Shown in pieces: positions 3,181 to 48,975 of a stretch of DNA of 63,331 nt. Origin of the DNA: a virus (taxonomy: Duplodnaviria; Caudoviricetes). The stretch is from the IMG/VR virus record IMGVR_UViG_3300037247_000518, positions 1 through 63,331 of that record; one strand, given 5' to 3'. The position numbers and the translations under genes are program-made. Every line of letters begins with the position of its first letter. The first letter of the stretch is position 1. The notes beneath the pieces are model-generated. The model was not told the DNA's origin and made no database searches. It saw only the letters and a list, made by a program, of their open reading frames with translations.

Positions 3181-4586
3181 AGCTCTACCGCCACCAGAAA
3201 GCGGCCATTCGCAAAGCGCTGTCGCTTGACGCCCGCTGCGGCCTCTTCATGGAGATGGGGACTGGGAAGACTCGCGTTGCTATAGAGACAGCGCGCCGCC
3301 TCAATCACTGTCGCCGCATCATTGTCGTGGCACCCCTTTCTGCTGTAGGTGTGTGGCGTAGAGAAGTGCGCAAGTGGGCACCGCAGGCGAGGACTGTGAC
3401 GTGTGCCTACAAGGGCGTGGTGCAGCGAGCGATTAGATTACGCAGGTTGCGTTACAGGCGGACGCGACGACGCGTGTTCGTCATTGTCGGGTATGAGGCA
3501 TTCTGGCGTAAGCCATTGCGGGACGAAATCCTGAAGTATGAGCCTGACATGATGATCTACGACGAAGCGCACCGGCTAAAGGAGAAGGGAACGAAGCAGA
3601 GCCGCTTTGCACATTCTCTTGCTGCTGCCGAGCAGAAGACACCTAAGCCGGATCACGTCCTGGAATTGACAGGCACCCCTCTGCCTAATGGCCCCGAAGA
3701 TGCTTTCTCGCTATTTAAGTCGATCTCACCTGCCATCTTCGGAAGTCGCTGGATAGACTTCGAGGACAGGTACATCATACGTGGCGGCTTCCAGCGTTAT
3801 CAGATTGTTGGCTATCGTAATCTACCTGAGCTAGAGCAGAAGATCGCAGACAACTCTTACAGGATTACAAAGGCCGAAGCATTTGATCTGCCGCCGGAAG
3901 TCGATGTGCCGGTGCCGGTGATACTGGGCCGTCGCGCACGACGGTACTACGACAAGCTGGCGCGCGATGCTATCGCTGAGATCGAGGATGCGTCAGGCAA
4001 AGGCATTGCTCTCGGACGCATCGTCCTGACTAATATCATACGACTTCAGCAGGTGTCATCGGGCTTTGTGAAAGTCGAAGATGGGCGTTTATTAGACTTC
4101 GACAAGTCGAAGCAGCATGCGCTAGCAGACCTGTTGCAAGAGGCGATCTTGAGCGCCGGACGTGCGGTCGTCTTCTGCAAGTTTACGCATGATGTGAAGG
4201 TTGCTATCAAGGTTGCGCAGAAACTTGTGGGCGAGGCTGTGTACAGGATCGACGGAAATGTCCCTCCACGAGATAGAGAGGCGCAGCTAAAATGGTTCAG
4301 GACATTTGACCGGAGTGTGCTGGTCTGCCAGATTCAGGTTGCTGAGGCTATCGACCTCTCATGTGCGCACATCAGCATCTTCTACGGTAGGGACTACTCA
4401 CTGCTCCACTTCGACCAGGCGAGGGGGCGAATACATAGAAAAGGCCAAGAGCAGAAAGTCACCCATTACCATCTGATTGCTGAAGACACCATCGACGGGA
4501 AGATATACGAGGCACTACAGAAGAAGGATAAGCTACAACGCGAACTGCTTGACGCGAACCGCGCAACGGAATTCTTTGGAGGATGA
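3177..4586 (+). CDS. SNF2-family helicase
   Basis: MEMGTGKT, DEAH, LTGTP, QARGRIHRKGQ. Confidence 0.92.
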   Translation: MKLYRHQKAAIRKALSLDARCGLFMEMGTGKTRVAIETARRLNHCRRIIVVAPLSAVGVWRREVRKWAPQARTVTCAYKGVVQRAIRLRRLRYRRTRRRVFVIVGYEAFWRKPLRDEILKYEPDMMIYDEAHRLKEKGTKQSRFAHSLAAAEQKTPKPDHVLELTGTPLPNGPEDAFSLFKSISPAIFGSRWIDFEDRYIIRGGFQRYQIVGYRNLPELEQKIADNSYRITKAEAFDLPPEVDVPVPVILGRRARRYYDKLARDAIAEIEDASGKGIALGRIVLTNIIRLQQVSSGFVKVEDGRLLDFDKSKQHALADLLQEAILSAGRAVVFCKFTHDVKVAIKVAQKLVGEAVYRIDGNVPPRDREAQLKWFRTFDRSVLVCQIQVAEAIDLSCAHISIFYGRDYSLLHFDQARGRIHRKGQEQKVTHYHLIAEDTIDGKIYEALQKKDKLQRELLDANRATEFFGG

Positions 4587-4590
4587 TCCC

Positions 4591-12287: not shown

Positions 12288-12738
12288 GAAGCGCCTTCTT
12301 AGAGATACCTGCTTTCGTTGTGATCTGCCTGTCTGGCAGTATGATGAGAGCGGCAGAGCTTTTTGTGAGTCACACGCCCGCTGGAGGCATCTGAAGATTG
12401 AGCGAATGCAGCACCCGCTTGATGCATATCGTGGCCGACGCTCCGTCATGCCTGCTAGAGTTAAGCACGCCGAGAAGACGACTATTGATATCATCCAGCG
12501 TATCGGGTATGCCGAAGCGCTGTGGGTCTCGGAGCATCTAGGCTTTGAAGACTATATCCAATGGTGGGATAGCAGTCTCGTTATCAGGCTGTCCGACATA
12601 CAGCTTGTCGCATTCGCGGCAGCCATGAGAGCACACCTTGAAGCAGTCTATCCATCTAGGGATGATCCGCGTAAGAGAGTGAGCACTAATAATGCCCCGC
12701 CGAAGAAGAAAAAGCGGAAGAAGCACTCCCTCCTCTAA
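12280..12738 (+). CDS. Hypothetical protein with N-terminal Zn finger
   Basis: CFRC...CESH; overlaps neighbours. Confidence 0.55.
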   Translation: MSKKRLLRDTCFRCDLPVWQYDESGRAFCESHARWRHLKIERMQHPLDAYRGRRSVMPARVKHAEKTTIDIIQRIGYAEALWVSEHLGFEDYIQWWDSSLVIRLSDIQLVAFAAAMRAHLEAVYPSRDDPRKRVSTNNAPPKKKKRKKHSLL

Positions 12739-31846: not shown

Positions 31847-31875
31847 TTGACTTCTCTTGCAGGCTGTGGTATAGT
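31847..31875 (+). promoter_or_regulatory. Sigma70-type promoter
   Basis: TTGACT-17 nt-TATAGT with extended TG. Confidence 0.75.
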
Positions 31876-31880
31876 GACTA

Positions 31881-32006
31881 TGCAAGTAGGGGCCGCACGC
31901 AGTTGCTACCTGAGACTCCGTGTTGCAGTCGTTCCGAAGATACAGGTTAGGGACTCCCGAAAGCGCGAGAAGAGCCTCCGTCATGGACGATGGGGGCTCT
32001 TTCTCT
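31881..32006 (+). ncRNA. Candidate small RNA of about 125 nt
   Basis: Bounded by the promoter and a 12-bp terminator hairpin (31971-32000); no RBS-led ORF; two ANGGAC motifs. Confidence 0.5.
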
Positions 32007-32159
32007 AGGTCTGAGTCCACTACTAACGCTCTCCCATCACCCGTCTGAGACTCCCGCCTAGGTCTGAGTCAAAGGGGAACGGCGCCTGTAGACCCGCCTG
32101 AGTGCGGCGCCCTGCCCGCCTGGGACCTGGTAGTCTAGAGGGATACATACTTTTGCCAC

Positions 32160-32189
32160 TTGACAAGCTCACGCGCGATCTCTTATAAT
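32160..32189 (+). promoter_or_regulatory. Consensus sigma70 promoter
   Basis: TTGACA-18 nt-TATAAT. Confidence 0.8.
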
Positions 32190-32243
32190 GATAGTGCCGG
32201 ACGCCAACGGAGTGCCGGACGGTAGCATGGAAGGAGCAGGATA

Positions 32244-38209: not shown

Positions 38210-39592
38210 ATGGTTAGCGAGCCTCGGGTAGATGTGTCTGGTCAGACGGACGGTGTCCCTTCTCCGTTCGCTGAGATGGGGACAACTGGACTTAAAAGGT
38301 TTGGCGGCGAAGTTCAGGAAGAGTTTGATCCTAATCTTCGCGGCATCCGGGGTGTCCGAGTCTTCGATGAGATGCGGCGTAATGATCCTGACATCGGAGC
38401 GATCCTGTTTGCTATCCTGCATGTCACATTAGGGTCTCAGTGGGAAGTTGCGGCTGCAAGCGAGAGCCAGCCGGACCTGGATGCGGCGGAATTCATCAGA
38501 CAGTGCCTCTTCGAGGACATGTCACATAGCTGGCGTGACTTCGTCGTTGACGCGATGACTTCAAATGCCTTCGGGTGGGCGCTGTTCGAGGTCGTCTACA
38601 AGCAGCGTCTAGGTGTTGAAGGCGACACGCCGAGCCGCTTCAGCGATGGCAGAATCGGCCTCAGGAAGCTCGGGCTGCGTGGCCAGGAAACACTTGCGCG
38701 CTGGGTATTTGACGAACACGGTGGCATTCAGGCTATGATCCAGCGCGGCGCACCAGATTTCAAAGAAGTCGTTATCCCCATTGCGAAAGCTCTCCTCATA
38801 CGTACGACAAGCGAGAAGAACAACCCTGAAGGGATTAGTCTGCTCCGCAACGCTTATCGACCCTATTACATCAAGACCAACATGGAGGAGATTGAGGTCA
38901 TAGGCGCCGAGCGCGACATGACGGGCGTGCTGAAAATCATGCTCCCCGCGAACGCGTCTGAAGCAGACAAAGCCAAGGCGCGAGAGATGGGAGAGCGCTA
39001 TCATGTCGATGACCAGACATACTTCCTGCTGCAACGATTCGGCGCGGAGCCACACCTAGGATGGGACATCGACGTAATCCAGACGCCAGGCAAGAAGGTC
39101 GTCGATACCGATAAGACGATTACAAGGTGCAGTACGTTTATTATGAGGAGCGTGCTGGCGCAGTTCTTGACTCTGGGCGCGGCGGGGCGCACTGGGTCAT
39201 TTGCGCTCGCGAATTCGCAGAAGGACCTCTGGCACCTTGCCGTTAAGGGGCGCCTCGATACATTTGCGGATGAGATCAACATGTATCTCATCCCGAAACT
39301 TTTTTTGCTGAATGCATTCCCGGGTATAACCGGACTCCCGAAGCTGAATCACAGCGATCCTGGCGAACTAGAGATGGCTGAGCTAACGCCATTCCTCCGT
39401 GTGATGGGTGGACTAGGCCTTATCAGGCCCACGCAAGAGGTCCTTGAGCATCTGCACGCAGTCGGTAATCTGCCGCCGCCGCCGCCCGATGCAATCGACG
39501 AATTCAAAAAGGAGCAAGAGCCTAAGCCTGAGCCAACTAATCTGCCTAATAACCCCGAGCGGCAGCACCAGACACAGAACGATGGCGCGTAA
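38210..39592 (+). CDS. Portal protein (DUF935 / Mu gp29-like)
   Basis: FDEMRRND, FGWALFEVVY, NPEGISLLRNAY, GSFALA; position after terL. Confidence 0.88.
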   Translation: MVSEPRVDVSGQTDGVPSPFAEMGTTGLKRFGGEVQEEFDPNLRGIRGVRVFDEMRRNDPDIGAILFAILHVTLGSQWEVAAASESQPDLDAAEFIRQCLFEDMSHSWRDFVVDAMTSNAFGWALFEVVYKQRLGVEGDTPSRFSDGRIGLRKLGLRGQETLARWVFDEHGGIQAMIQRGAPDFKEVVIPIAKALLIRTTSEKNNPEGISLLRNAYRPYYIKTNMEEIEVIGAERDMTGVLKIMLPANASEADKAKAREMGERYHVDDQTYFLLQRFGAEPHLGWDIDVIQTPGKKVVDTDKTITRCSTFIMRSVLAQFLTLGAAGRTGSFALANSQKDLWHLAVKGRLDTFADEINMYLIPKLFLLNAFPGITGLPKLNHSDPGELEMAELTPFLRVMGGLGLIRPTQEVLEHLHAVGNLPPPPPDAIDEFKKEQEPKPEPTNLPNNPERQHQTQNDGA

Positions 39593-39980
39593 AGATTTCG
39601 CATCAATAGGTCTTGAAGTCAGGATGCACGGCTTCAAGCGCGCGCTGAGCAAGCTCGACCCCGCTAGAGCAGAACGCGCGCTCGACCAGGGGCTTGATCG
39701 TGGCTCGCAATTTGTCTTTGACACAATTAAGGCACAGTCTCGTGTTAAGACGGCGCGGTACTTTCTCTCTTGGGTGCGTGAGCGTGTCTCGTCCAGTCTA
39801 TACAGGATCACCAACGCTGAATCTTATGCCGAGTTCGTGACGGGCAGGACGCAGCACACGACGCTCGAAGGCGGCAGGCGGCGGGGCGCCGCCGCAGCAT
39901 TTATGCGCAAGATAAGCCGGGAGGTACTCCCGACTGTCAGAAAGCTCATGGACGAAAGCATTAGGGAGCATATGACTTAA
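39582..39980 (+). CDS. Putative HK97 gp10-like virion completion protein
   Basis: RVKT...NAESYAEFV...G pattern. Confidence 0.45.
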   Translation: MARKDFASIGLEVRMHGFKRALSKLDPARAERALDQGLDRGSQFVFDTIKAQSRVKTARYFLSWVRERVSSSLYRITNAESYAEFVTGRTQHTTLEGGRRRGAAAAFMRKISREVLPTVRKLMDESIREHMT

Positions 39981-40156
39981 TGCCTAGCACTTCTCACCAT
40001 CAGCATGTCTTCATCTGCCGTCGTAACCCAATGGCTCATAACTGCTTCCTCGACTCATGTGTGGAAATCCTTGTGATCTGCCCAGAGTGCGGAAGCGCAG
40101 GCCGCATGCTGGTCCTTACGTTCAGCAATAGTGGCATCTGGGAAGAAGTCGAATAA
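39980..40156 (+). CDS. Small Cys-rich protein (58 aa, not in ORF track)
   Basis: TAATG coupling; CPECG. Confidence 0.45.
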   Translation: MPSTSHHQHVFICRRNPMAHNCFLDSCVEILVICPECGSAGRMLVLTFSNSGIWEEVE

Positions 40157-40157
40157 G

Positions 40158-40472
40158 ATGTACGTGTTGCGCAGGACGGTCGGTACCTCAATTACAATCA
40201 AGGCAAGTGATGCTGTGATACGGCTCAAGCTCGTAGGTATTGACTGGCTCGGCGCTTGTGCTCTCCTACACATCACGAGAAATGGAGAGCCGCCTAGACC
40301 GATGGAGATGGGTCCTGGCGAGACTGTCTCTCTCCACCCCGACGTGCAGTTTCAATTGTTAAGGCTCTCGTACGCTACGCACGATGGCACACCCGCCCGC
40401 GTAGCGGAGTTCGGCATCGACGCGCCACGTTCGATAGCTGTGAGACGTTCGGAGACTGAGAATGGCCCTTGA
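40158..40472 (+). CDS. CsrA/RsmA-like RNA-binding protein, about double length
   Basis: N-terminal MYVLRRTVGTSITI and C-terminal FGIDAPRSIAVRRSE match the CsrA termini. Confidence 0.65.
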   Translation: MYVLRRTVGTSITIKASDAVIRLKLVGIDWLGACALLHITRNGEPPRPMEMGPGETVSLHPDVQFQLLRLSYATHDGTPARVAEFGIDAPRSIAVRRSETENGP

Positions 40473-40612
40473 CAACCGGGGACCACCTGTGCTATACCAT
40501 AAATAGCTAGGCGGGGTCGCGCTTGCGCGACTCGCGACCAGGCTAGCCAGCACGCCGTAGATGGATGATCCAGATTGCTCCATCTGCGGCGTTCCTTTAT
40601 GGAGGAGATGCG

Positions 40613-42343
40613 ATGCCGTTCTCAGGCCCAAGTGACAAGTCTCTCCCGAGCAACGTGAAGAAGCTCGGCGCGAAACAGAAGCGTCGATGGGTTAGCGTCT
40701 TCAACTCCGCTTTCTCGAAGTGTAGGAAAGATGGCGGTAAGGACTGCGAGGCGTCTGCTTTTAGGCAGGCAAACGGAGTCCTCAAGAACGCCTCTACGAC
40801 ATTTGCCGGACTGCTAGGGGGTAAGAACGCATTAGGCCGCTCAGTTATCGAGCTACAGGCCGCCGAACCTCCAGAGTCGATCAACATCTTCCCTTCACCT
40901 GGTATCTATAAACATCCTGTATGGGGTGATATGGAGGTCACATCTGAGGGCAATAAGCTGTTTGTAGATAACTTCAATGCACACGTCTACCAGCAGGAAA
41001 TCCCTATTGATGCTGAACACGACGGGAAGCTCTCCGGCGCAGTCGGGTACATCAGAGAACTAGTGCTGAATGATGACGAGAGCATCGAGGCTTCAGTTGA
41101 GTGGACAGATCGCGGAGAGACGCTTATCAAGGACGATGCCTTTAAGTACATCTCGCCTGAGTGGTTCGAGGAGTGGACGGACCCCGCATCGCATGAGGAC
41201 TTCGAGAATATCATGATCGGTGCTGCGCTGACAAACCATCCTTTCTTCAAGAATCTTCGCTCGCTTGTTGCGAGTGAGGGTAGACTCTACGATGCGGGCG
41301 AAGGCGATACGGTAGAGAGAATTCCTCTGGTTAGGAGTACCGCTGAAGGTATTTCATACGGGGACCTCACGACACTCGTGATGAGTGCTGCCCGTCATGA
41401 ATTCCCTGGAGTCTTCGGGCACAGTGAATATGGAGGTTGGGTTGCGGACCTCTATGACGATTATGCAATCATAGAAAACGGTAATCATTATTTCCGGGTT
41501 GATTACAGCTACTCAGGAGAGGAGGTTACATTTTCTGGACAGCCTATCGAAGTAGTACGGCACACAGTCTGGGATGCTGCGCCGCATGCAGCAACAGGAG
41601 AAAAGGAGGAACACGTGGCAGAAGTCAAGGTCGAAGACCTAGATGTCGAGAAGATGGAAGAGAAGGACCAAATGAACCTCTTCCAGCGCCTCGCCAAGCT
41701 CACTAAGGCTACTATCAGTTTTGGTAGCAATGGTGAAGAAGAAGAGGAAGAGGAGGAAGAGGAAGAAGAGGAGACTGGCGGCGATACCGACTCCAAGACC
41801 GCTGCCGAGATCACCTCGCTGCAATCGCGACTCGAAACAAGCGAGAAGCAGCGTATAGCGACTGAAGGCCGCCTTACTGGCCTTGAGACTGAAGGCCGTG
41901 AACGGCGCATGCGCGACATTATCCTTGGTCGAGATGAGCCGTCTGTCAGACAGGCTGCGGAATCGGAAGGTGCTGTACCAGCGCTGCGCCCGATGGTTGG
42001 GGAACTTGCGGACAAGCTCACAATCATGACGGTACTCGCTGAGACGAAGGGTGAGGACTCCGCTGAGTTTAAGGCCTACGTGGCGGGGGAGCGCGAGCAC
42101 GCCAACCAGCTTCACGAGGCGGGGATGTTCTCTGAGGCGGGGGTGGACTCGTCCGGCGGGCCGGTTACTGCATCGGCTGATGACGAGTTTGAGAAGCGCA
42201 TCAAGGTGCTGACCGAAGGCGAGAGCAAGATGCCTCGCGACGAGGCTATCGCGAAGGTCGCGGCGGAAGACCCGAAGCTCTACAACGCGTACGACAAAGA
42301 GCACACAGGGCGTAGGGGCACGCACTCCGGCTCAAGCTCGTAG
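40613..42343 (+). CDS. ChaB-domain prohead protease (Mu I-like) with nested scaffold (GTG 41615)
   Basis: LPSNVK..WVSVFNSA ChaB; IDAEH, AVGYI, WT.RG, YISPE, GAALTNHP; internal AAGGAGG RBS. Confidence 0.85.
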   Translation: MPFSGPSDKSLPSNVKKLGAKQKRRWVSVFNSAFSKCRKDGGKDCEASAFRQANGVLKNASTTFAGLLGGKNALGRSVIELQAAEPPESINIFPSPGIYKHPVWGDMEVTSEGNKLFVDNFNAHVYQQEIPIDAEHDGKLSGAVGYIRELVLNDDESIEASVEWTDRGETLIKDDAFKYISPEWFEEWTDPASHEDFENIMIGAALTNHPFFKNLRSLVASEGRLYDAGEGDTVERIPLVRSTAEGISYGDLTTLVMSAARHEFPGVFGHSEYGGWVADLYDDYAIIENGNHYFRVDYSYSGEEVTFSGQPIEVVRHTVWDAAPHAATGEKEEHVAEVKVEDLDVEKMEEKDQMNLFQRLAKLTKATISFGSNGEEEEEEEEEEEEETGGDTDSKTAAEITSLQSRLETSEKQRIATEGRLTGLETEGRERRMRDIILGRDEPSVRQAAESEGAVPALRPMVGELADKLTIMTVLAETKGEDSAEFKAYVAGEREHANQLHEAGMFSEAGVDSSGGPVTASADDEFEKRIKVLTEGESKMPRDEAIAKVAAEDPKLYNAYDKEHTGRRGTHSGSSS

Positions 42344-47845: not shown

Positions 47846-48975
47846 TGCAAGAAAGGAGTCATAAGGGGATGATCCCATTATTCAGGGTTGCGATGCACCC
47901 GAGCGTGCCGAAGCGTGTCGAGGAGACATTGCTGTCAGGCTACATAGGAGAGGGCCCTCGCGTCAGAGAGTTTGAAGAGGCATTCGCTGAGATGCATGGC
48001 TATGTTGCAATGCTGGCAACGAACTCATGTACCTCGGCACTCGATATGGCCTATCACCTGATTGGTCTCGGCGCAGGGGATGAAGTGATCTCGACGCCGA
48101 TGACGTGCCTCGCAACGAATATGCCGCTCGCATTGCGCGGCTGTAAGATCGTCTGGGCTGATGTACACCCGCGCACTGGTAATATCTCGCCTGAGAGCAT
48201 TGCTAAGCTTGTTACGCCCGACACCAAGGCTATCGTCGCTACGGACTGGGCCGGTCGCGCGTGTGACTACAATGCGATCCGCGCAGCGGCGCCTGGCGTT
48301 CCCATTGTAGAAGACGCCGCGCATGCGTTCGGTGCATACTACATGGGTCATCCTCTCACGGCGTTTGGCGGTGACTACATCGCGTGGAGCTTCCAGGCGA
48401 TCAAGCACCTGACGACCGGAGACGGTGGCATGCTGAAAGTGCCCGCTAGTAAATACAGGCGAGCACGGCTTCTGCGCTGGTATGGCCTCGACCGCGAGGA
48501 TTCGACGGCGATGAGATGCCTCCAACAGGCAAGCGAACCTGGGTTCAAGTACCAGATGAACGACATCGCAGCGACTATTGGCCTTGCTAACCTGAAGATG
48601 GCGCAGCATCATGTCAACTTTCATCGCATGAATGCAGCCTACTACGACAGAGCATTGCCACAGGCTGTTATAGGCTTATCTTACCCGCCTCTCAATGAAC
48701 ATAGTGCGTGGATATACACAATCCTCGTTGATGACCCCGCGGCATTTGAACAGCAAATGCAGGAGGCTGGCATTCAGGTGTCGCAGGTACATACACGCAA
48801 CGATATGCAGGAGTGCATGCCGGATGCTGACATTTCTCGTCCACGCCCGGGGCTAGCCGAATTCTCCGCACACATGATTTCGATTCCTGTTGGTTGGTGG
48901 TTGACATCGGAGGATCGCGAGTACATCGCAACGACGGTATCGCTTGCTGTGAAGGAGCCGGTCGGTGTTGCGTGA
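47845..48975 (+). CDS. DegT/DnrJ/EryC1/StrS PLP-dependent sugar aminotransferase
   Basis: NSCTSAL, VEDAAHA, SFQAIKHLTTGDGG. Confidence 0.93.
   Translation: MQERSHKGMIPLFRVAMHPSVPKRVEETLLSGYIGEGPRVREFEEAFAEMHGYVAMLATNSCTSALDMAYHLIGLGAGDEVISTPMTCLATNMPLALRGCKIVWADVHPRTGNISPESIAKLVTPDTKAIVATDWAGRACDYNAIRAAAPGVPIVEDAAHAFGAYYMGHPLTAFGGDYIAWSFQAIKHLTTGDGGMLKVPASKYRRARLLRWYGLDREDSTAMRCLQQASEPGFKYQMNDIAATIGLANLKMAQHHVNFHRMNAAYYDRALPQAVIGLSYPPLNEHSAWIYTILVDDPAAFEQQMQEAGIQVSQVHTRNDMQECMPDADISRPRPGLAEFSAHMISIPVGWWLTSEDREYIATTVSLAVKEPVGVA

Follow-up and report, generated by a model that had tools for sequence, protein, structure and literature searches.

We find that the gene directly ahead of the head operon of a tailed phage encodes a CsrA-like protein of double length, and that behind it lies a leader with a GGA-containing element that is kept across related loci. 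The stretch analysed, hereafter the window, is the whole of a virus record of 63,331 bases that is 87% complete. The homology to CsrA, the conserved length of the protein, the gene order around it and the motif and hairpin behind it are all seen directly in the sequences compared. In our model, two CsrA-type beta units would be joined in one chain as a CsrA-derived RNA-binding pseudo-dimer; CsrA-like sequence would be retained at the two ends, in the opening strand (MYVLRR) and in the closing ones (GIDAPRSIxxRxE), and the second face (mid-chain, with strand 47-51 and with the beta5 counterpart of the first unit absent) would have decayed. The most likely target would be the mRNA leader directly behind the gene, with GGAUGAUCC ahead of the SD of the protease/scaffold-capsid operon, and the same 9-mer at other translation start regions of the phage may be a target as well. 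The outcome could be a tuning or timing of head-gene translation, or read-through of the terminator-like leader hairpin; target and direction of control are those that we infer. RNA binding by the 104-aa protein is probable, and we consider it moderately probable that the protein is a single-chain pseudo-dimer of two CsrA-type units. Taken whole, a one-face pseudo-dimer acting on the leader is the best explanation that we can offer, and we hold it tentatively.

The gene, its genome setting and its family

The ORF is a genuine gene, and PHROG matches place the genes around it in the window:

40158-40472, + strand (ATG 40158, TGA 40470-40472): ORF of the CsrA-derived protein (104 aa), supported by translation, family and model
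36454: terminase gene
38210-39592: portal gene
40613-42343, + strand: Mu-I-type head protease/scaffold gene (also PF10123, E 6.8e-11), the constant downstream neighbour
42369: scaffold-like gene
42778: major capsid gene
2146: clamp-like gene of the replication module
3177: helicase gene of the replication module
5997: polymerase gene of the replication module
12692: primase-like gene of the replication module

The ATG of the CsrA-like gene stands 1 nt past the stop of a cysteine-rich 58-aa ORF (39980-40156, + strand), and it is therefore the last gene of the terminase-portal block and closes that operon. The 58-aa ORF is translationally coupled to the CsrA-like gene and by eye is possibly zinc-binding; it had no family match and is not kept at the same place in two of the related loci, L004 and L005. 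In the protease/scaffold protein, a run of 13 glutamates in mid-protein (window 41735-41773) probably marks the border between protease and scaffold. Elsewhere in the window, a queuine tRNA-ribosyltransferase-like gene (1109-2131; phrog_887, E 1.2e-10) and an aminotransferase-like gene (47869-48975; phrog_3139, E 2.2e-34) may together hint at modification of phage DNA bases.

A word-indexed search of 5.8 billion proteins yielded 30 candidates, of which 27 are relatives at E<=0.01, with lengths of 101-113 aa and identities of 55-88%; a profile search, with 930 candidates, raised the number to 40. When 1.84 billion cluster representatives were scanned in full by HMM, just five came up, one of which (P0030, 369 aa, repetitive) was set aside as probably spurious. 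With so few matches, and with relatives of 101-113 aa, this is a small family in which the double length has been kept. The sole DNA sample listed for the gene is labelled a marine sediment metagenome and may be the source sample; none of the RNA runs searched was listed with the gene. No relatives were found among 185,579 species genomes, searched for prophages and hosts, no GenBank phage matched the 104-aa protein, and the distant member P0029 yielded no loci.

The likeness of the protein to CsrA is genuine and more than chance, but weak. Its N-terminus (MYVLRRTVGTSITI) and C-terminus (...FGIDAPRSIAVRRSETENGP) resemble those of E. coli K-12 CsrA taken from NC_000913 (MLILTRRVGETLMI...IGVNAPKEVSVHREE), which bears out what the initial annotation had claimed for the two ends. 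Pfam PF02599 matches the window protein at E 1.4e-4 with 22.2 bits and does not reach its gathering score of 27 bits, two NCBIfam CsrA equivalogs match at E 2.4e-3 and 5.4e-3, far below their cut-offs, and phrog_9500 ('CsrA-like regulator') matches at E 6.1e-3. Among the relatives, PF02599 is matched at E<=0.01 by 20 of 26 (best 1.6e-6), and precomputed PF02599 assignments exist for 9 of the 27 from the word-indexed search.

The conserved positions fall into two segments of the protein:

40158-40226, + strand: residues 1-23, match to CsrA beta1-beta3, with L4, R5 and R6
40317-40454, + strand: residues 54-99, second CsrA-like unit (beta2-beta5), with G54-E55, G86, A89-P90, R97 and E99

In the family alignment, L4, R5, R6, G9, G54, E55, G86, A89, P90 and E99 are invariant or nearly so; R5, R6, G86, P90 and E99 are strictly invariant, L4 is nearly so, and among the 26 rows, 20 have R and 3 have K at position 97. 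Set against all PDB sequences, the family profile retrieved only CsrA and RsmE rows, both non-significant (E 0.66 and 1.3), with residues 1-22 on beta1-beta2 (RsmE 1-21) and residues 75-100 on RsmE 22-47; the RsmE alignment sets R97 on R44 and E99 on E46. The set of RNA-binding residues of CsrA (L4, R44 and the R6-E46 pair) is present as L4, R97, R6 and E99, and passages of a CsrA review call L4 and R44 critical for RNA binding (PMC7652899).

The two segments also emerge when the halves are taken separately, at E-values that are weak for both and against a reference of 121 near-identical CsrAs: an HMM of residues 1-46 set residues 1-23 on CsrA 1-22, and an HMM of residues 45-104 set residues 54-99 on CsrA 9-46, from G-E-T onward. 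In the latter, the internal GETVSLHPDVQFQLL, earlier read as a second beta2-beta3 copy, does align with CsrA beta2-beta3. A profile-profile comparison of the two halves for an internal repeat (hhalign, three cut points) was not significant (E 0.29-0.42), Pfam gave no match to the N-terminal half and matched just residues 40-55 of the C-terminal half (E 0.024), and when the family was compared with E. coli CsrA alone, hhalign aligned just residues 84-100, at a probability of 4%. A search with E. coli CsrA for a diverse set listed 120 rows that were about 88% or more identical and of little use for a profile.

Predicted fold and relation to known CsrA-type structures

The AlphaFold2 model, computed from a 26-row alignment, has a pLDDT of 87.2 and a pTM of 0.77 and is all-beta, with nine strands (2-7, 11-15, 20-29, 34-41, 47-51, 56-60, 63-75, 78-88 and 94-98) and no helix. 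Foldseek against the PDB gave no match at E<=0.001. In an exhaustive VIA structure search, class II fusion-protein domains took the highest ranks (Z 7.7-8.3, 7-11% identity), and the tool itself warns that a Z below 8 may reflect merely a common arrangement. Among the 50 rows listed, the best CsrA-family structure is RsmN (4kji_A, rank 24; Z 5.2, rmsd 2.7, 52 of 64 residues, model residues 1-101, 25% identity); RsmA follows (1vpz_A, rank 34; Z 4.7, rmsd 3.6, 53 of 57 residues, model residues 44-104, 24% identity), and these two have the highest identities of those rows. The structural check proposed earlier, a comparison with CsrA, RsmA and RsmN, thus gives a predicted self-contained nine-strand beta structure on which the RsmA and RsmN chains align, at Z-scores in the range to which the tool's warning applies.

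BFVD gave nine matches at E<=1e-3, viral proteins of 85-114 aa except for the seventh, whose length is 177 aa; the top match is named 'Carbon storage regulator [uncultured Caudovirales phage]' (114 aa, E 2.7e-6, TM 0.70). The ESM Atlas returned mostly viral clusters of proteins of about 100 aa, two of which have 410 and 219 members with PF02599 on 27% and 12%, and a cluster of a 105-aa 'putative translational regulator CsrA' from Peregrinibacteria (TM 0.75). Because of the nine BFVD matches and the Atlas clusters of 410 and 219, the predicted fold seems common in phages.

The strand order, together with the residue ranges of two middling structure alignments, points to two sheets, S9-S2-S3-S4-S5 and S6-S7-S8-S1. 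If these sheets are right, the RsmA chain lies on S5-S9 and the RsmN chain on S1, S2, S7, S8 and S9, and both alignment ranges agree with this. Unit A would comprise S1-S4 and unit B S5-S9, with the beta5 of the first unit missing. Each RNA face of CsrA is described as beta1 of one subunit plus beta5 of the other (PMC7652899, in part), and S1 and S8-S9, the CsrA-like segments, would together form one such beta1/beta5 face. We propose one retained working face because the CsrA-like parts are the first and last strands, which are beta1/beta5 partners in the CsrA dimer. In S5, which reads xxE[MLI]G, both L and R are lacking, and a second face would need this strand plus the missing one. The monomeric state and the strand topology, like the single working RNA-binding face of the pseudo-dimer, we infer; a homodimer prediction scored 0.07 against a mark of 0.42, which is no answer and counts neither way.

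The CsrA-like parts can also be described as an N-terminal beta1-beta3 and a C-terminal beta4-beta5, the pattern of one chain with an insertion, and passages on RsmN show that the fold tolerates insertions (PMC3791407). The protein might on this account be a classical two-faced CsrA-type homodimer with an extra beta subdomain (residues ~30-75), which would bridge GGAUGAUCC to the GGA in the SD and so repress the head operon. We consider this unlikely: the monomer model is compact and, by its pTM, confident, the whole RsmA chain aligns on residues 44-104, and the match of residues 54-99 to CsrA 9-46, G-E-T included, is more in keeping with a second unit than with an unrelated insert.

Generic beta sandwiches lead the structural rows, phage baseplate proteins among them (Z 5.1-5.9), the net charge of the protein is near zero (pI 7.98), and the gene sits inside the head module, between portal and protease/scaffold. 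These features would suit a small head-assembly or structural accessory protein that keeps a CsrA-derived beta sandwich and has no role in RNA regulation. Such a role is very unlikely in our view. The best conserved residues are the RNA-binding ones of CsrA (L4, R6, R97, E99 and GxxAP), and the gene does not count among the core head parts, since cultured relatives that share the capsid type do without it at this position. In Roseobacter phage RDJL Phi 1 and Rhizobium phage RHph_Y60, the small genes at the corresponding position were not CsrA-like by eye.

With the CsrA/RsmA/RsmE proteins (PF02599; E. coli CsrA, P. aeruginosa RsmA 1VPZ and the RsmE-RNA complex 2JPP), the phage protein shares the N-terminal MxxLxR...VG and the C-terminal GxxAPxxxxxxRxE, the residues L4, R6, R44 (here R97) and E46 (here E99), a predicted all-beta sandwich and, presumably, a ligand of GGA-containing RNA near an SD. 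CsrA has about 61 aa and a C-terminal helix, whereas the phage protein has 104 aa and nine strands without a helix; CsrA is a domain-swapped homodimer with two RNA faces, whereas the phage protein is probably one chain with one face. RsmN/RsmF of Pseudomonas aeruginosa (4KJI) has a rewired CsrA fold, an insertion within the chain, no C-terminal helix and an RNA face formed by beta1 and beta5 of the same chain, as predicted for the phage protein (PMC3791407, in part). According to passages of the same paper, the sheet order is beta5A-beta2B-beta3B-beta4B-beta1A in RsmA and beta5A-beta2A-beta3B-beta4B-beta1B in RsmN, and R8 and E64 of RsmN form an intrachain salt bridge joining beta1 and beta5 whose equivalent in RsmA is intersubunit. 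RsmN is there described as a 71-aa protein with a 16-residue helix between beta2 and beta3 that forms a dimer of compact monomers; the phage protein instead has about 45 extra residues as beta strands and no helix.

A precedent for a single chain is the C-terminal domain of the GTPase YqeH (3EC1), remarked on in PMC2954204, in the passages seen, as a CsrA-like sandwich of two repeats; that domain is part of a large GTPase, whereas the phage protein is free-standing, and it was not among the 50 VIA rows listed. CsrA-family genes of tailed phages are likewise on record as the phage and plasmid csrA alleles of Sobrero and Valverde 2020 (PMC7366521, in part; phrog_9500), which were found by PSI-BLAST with an E. 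coli CsrA query and are discussed in those passages as Rsm subfamilies of ordinary type. Phage csrA alleles, rewired CsrA folds such as that of RsmN and a single-chain CsrA-like sandwich in YqeH are thus already known. On natural single-chain CsrA, our literature search, partial texts included, returned only the YqeH remark (PMC2954204), and on a free-standing form no paper. The same search found no paper on this phage fold.

CsrA is among the best studied bacterial post-transcriptional regulators, a symmetric dimer whose two faces bridge two GGA sites. A natural single-chain form with one face, if real, would be a ready-made test of what one CsrA face can do and a compact scaffold for engineering RNA binders.

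Conserved elements in the leader of the head operon

The alignment covered seven related loci, which reduce to five distinct ones (the window, L001=L002, L003=L004, L005 and L010). What lies upstream of the CsrA-like gene varies: in the window it is the cysteine-rich 58-aa ORF, in L004 a gene for an FkbM-type methyltransferase and in L005 an ORF without a Pfam match. A FliW-type partner upstream was considered and rejected, as the neighbours differ between loci and none matched such a family. Downstream, the order is the same in five of the five distinct loci: CTTGACA...TGTGnTA, then GGATGATCC, the SD and the protease/scaffold gene, which starts with ATG/GTG CCN TWY TCN GGN CC. In the window, the elements are as follows:

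40468-40498, + strand: promoter-like element, CTTGACA, 17-18 nt, TGTGnTA, both blocks invariant in 7/7 aligned loci
40505-40544, + strand: first leader hairpin, only in the window and L003/L004
40552-40592, + strand: second leader hairpin, with the 9-mer in its upper stem and loop, followed by UUCCUUUAU
40563-40571, + strand: 9-mer GGATGATCC, invariant in the leaders of 5/5 distinct loci, candidate RNA target or SD-like element
40601-40615, + strand: SD GGAGGAG (40601-40607) and ATG 40613 of the head protease/scaffold gene

The element at 40468-40498 may function as a promoter, and its -35-like hexamer overlaps the TGA stop of the CsrA-like ORF. A consensus scan of the window called neither this site nor the leader hairpin, and a search of the window with the strict pattern CTTGACA-N15-19-TGTGNTA came back empty. 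None of the -10-like hexamers (TATACC, TAGTAC, TATCTA and TATTGC) has the final T, so that the site could be a promoter of the extended -10 kind or another sort of element. From TGTGnTA to the 9-mer the spacing ranges from ~15 to ~65 nt across loci.

The hairpin that carries the 9-mer is stable in the window, L001 and L003 (z -3.2, -2.7 and -3.5) and is followed by a U-rich run; in L005 it is weak, and L010 has no stable one. The consensus hairpin has 14 pairs, 4 with compensatory changes among just 3 sequences, and in it the GG of GGA is paired and not in the loop. The initial annotation had pointed to AUGGA at two places in this leader: both copies are there (40561-40565 and 40599-40603), the stem around the first has about 14 pairs instead of the 7 described, and the second, overlapping GGAGGAG, is just an ordinary SD. 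A GGA element as such does hold its place, since the 9-mer that contains it is the invariant one, and the 'A' of ANGGA is not conserved. The 140-nt leader has 4 GGA against 2.5 expected and 2 ANGGA against 0.6 expected, which is unremarkable; it stands out by conservation across loci, not by its GGA count. Rfam gave no match on the whole window. In the predicted fold, the U/C run UCCUU after the leader hairpin pairs with GAGGA of the SD (40593-40606) in a small SD-occluding hairpin.

The leader hairpin is a plausible, if tentative, target of the protein, and a one-faced CsrA derivative might work by controlling read-through of it. For the two-faced homodimer, the leader provides the further point that the 9-mer stands ~15-38 nt from the SD in the five leaders, and passages of PMC7652899 report a CsrA bridging range of 10-63 nt. 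The fixed pairing of gene and leader may bear on how the phage controls the amount of its head proteins, or the time at which they are made.

The 9-mer at other sites and a proposed small RNA

Outside the leader, the window contains the 9-mer four more times:

2136-2144, + strand: GGATGATCC, 1 nt before ATG 2146 of the sliding-clamp-like gene
4581-4589, + strand: GGATGATCC, 1 nt before ATG 4591 of an 88-aa ORF
12660-12668, + strand: GGATGATCC, 23 nt before ATG 12692 of the primase/polymerase-like gene
47867-47875, + strand: GGATGATCC, containing the in-frame ATG 47869 of the aminotransferase-like gene

All five copies lie on the + strand and none on the - strand, with ~0.27 expected per strand (Poisson P ~9e-6). 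The related 54.6-kb record G001 likewise has five on the coding strand and none on the other, the reversed-pattern control giving 0. The looser GGANGATCC occurs 10 times against 1 on the two strands of the window (+ strand sites at 2136, 4581, 12660, 17116, 40563, 43775, 44647, 47867, 50349 and 54276) and 11 times against 0 in G001, and the counts are 0/2 and 1/0 in two cultured phages whose capsid protein is 34-37% identical and in which the gene is absent at this place.

At six of the ten GGANGATCC sites in the window, an ORF of at least 88 aa starts 0-2 nt further on, which gives the 9-mer its SD-like look, and the exact GGATGATCC copies of G001 show the like in three of five cases. Such a pattern might reflect an unusual way of starting translation or a word read by a regulator, and the 9-mer may simply be SD-like, an SD with its spacer. 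The sequence UGAUCC is the complement of GGAUCA, which lies just upstream of the anti-SD near the 3' end of 16S rRNA. Because CsrA sites by nature mimic SDs, the SD and CsrA-site readings are inseparable by sequence alone. The CsrA SELEX consensus is given as RUACARGGAUGU in passages of PMC7652899, and GGAUG is common to it and the 9-mer.

The protein might accordingly bind RNA with GGAUGAUCC not being its site: the 9-mer would be an SD-like, ribosome-recruiting or small-upstream-ORF element peculiar to this clade of phages, and the protein would act elsewhere, for example on host mRNAs or Csr/Rsm sRNAs. Most GGA(N)GATCC copies lie 0-2 nt before start codons, and GTG or ATT follows the motif by 1-3 nt in five of five leaders; moreover, Csr control of host physiology is broad (PMC7652899, in part), and a survey of 2517 phage genomes found csrA alleles in 30 (PMC7366521, in part). 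Against this stand the linkage of gene, promoter-like element and motif in 5/5 loci despite varied upstream genes, the frame after the motif, which is not conserved (in frame with the protease gene in three leaders, out of frame in two), and the fact that no strong SD of the window is the perfect anti-SD complement GGAGGUGAUCC. We judge action at another site to be unlikely.

Returning to the one-faced pseudo-dimer, a narrower form of it would be a monomeric CsrA derivative that reads the 9-nt word GGAUGAUCC both at the top of the leader hairpin and at several gene starts, which we regard as doubtful. T4 RegA is a phage translational repressor, and if such reading of a 9-nt word were true, the protein would be a CsrA-fold counterpart of a RegA-like repressor and a two-site bridging regulator would have been turned into a one-site specific one.

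A hijacking of host Csr regulation is unsupported by our analysis, and the same holds for the proposal that an sRNA at 31881-32006 titrates the Csr-like protein. That RNA has an unremarkable predicted fold (z -1.25) and just two GGA, and no similar DNA was found in four related records (12-65% complete). A possible small transcript covers 31847-32005, with TTGACT-17 nt-TATAGT and an upstream TG, then ~125 nt that end in a terminator-like 16-pair hairpin with a U run and AUGGAC in its loop. Just past this hairpin, in non-coding DNA, the direct repeat CTAGGTCTGAGTC stands at 32005-32017 and 32058-32070, and the repeat stretch precedes another promoter-like site, TTGACA...TATAAT near 32160-32190.
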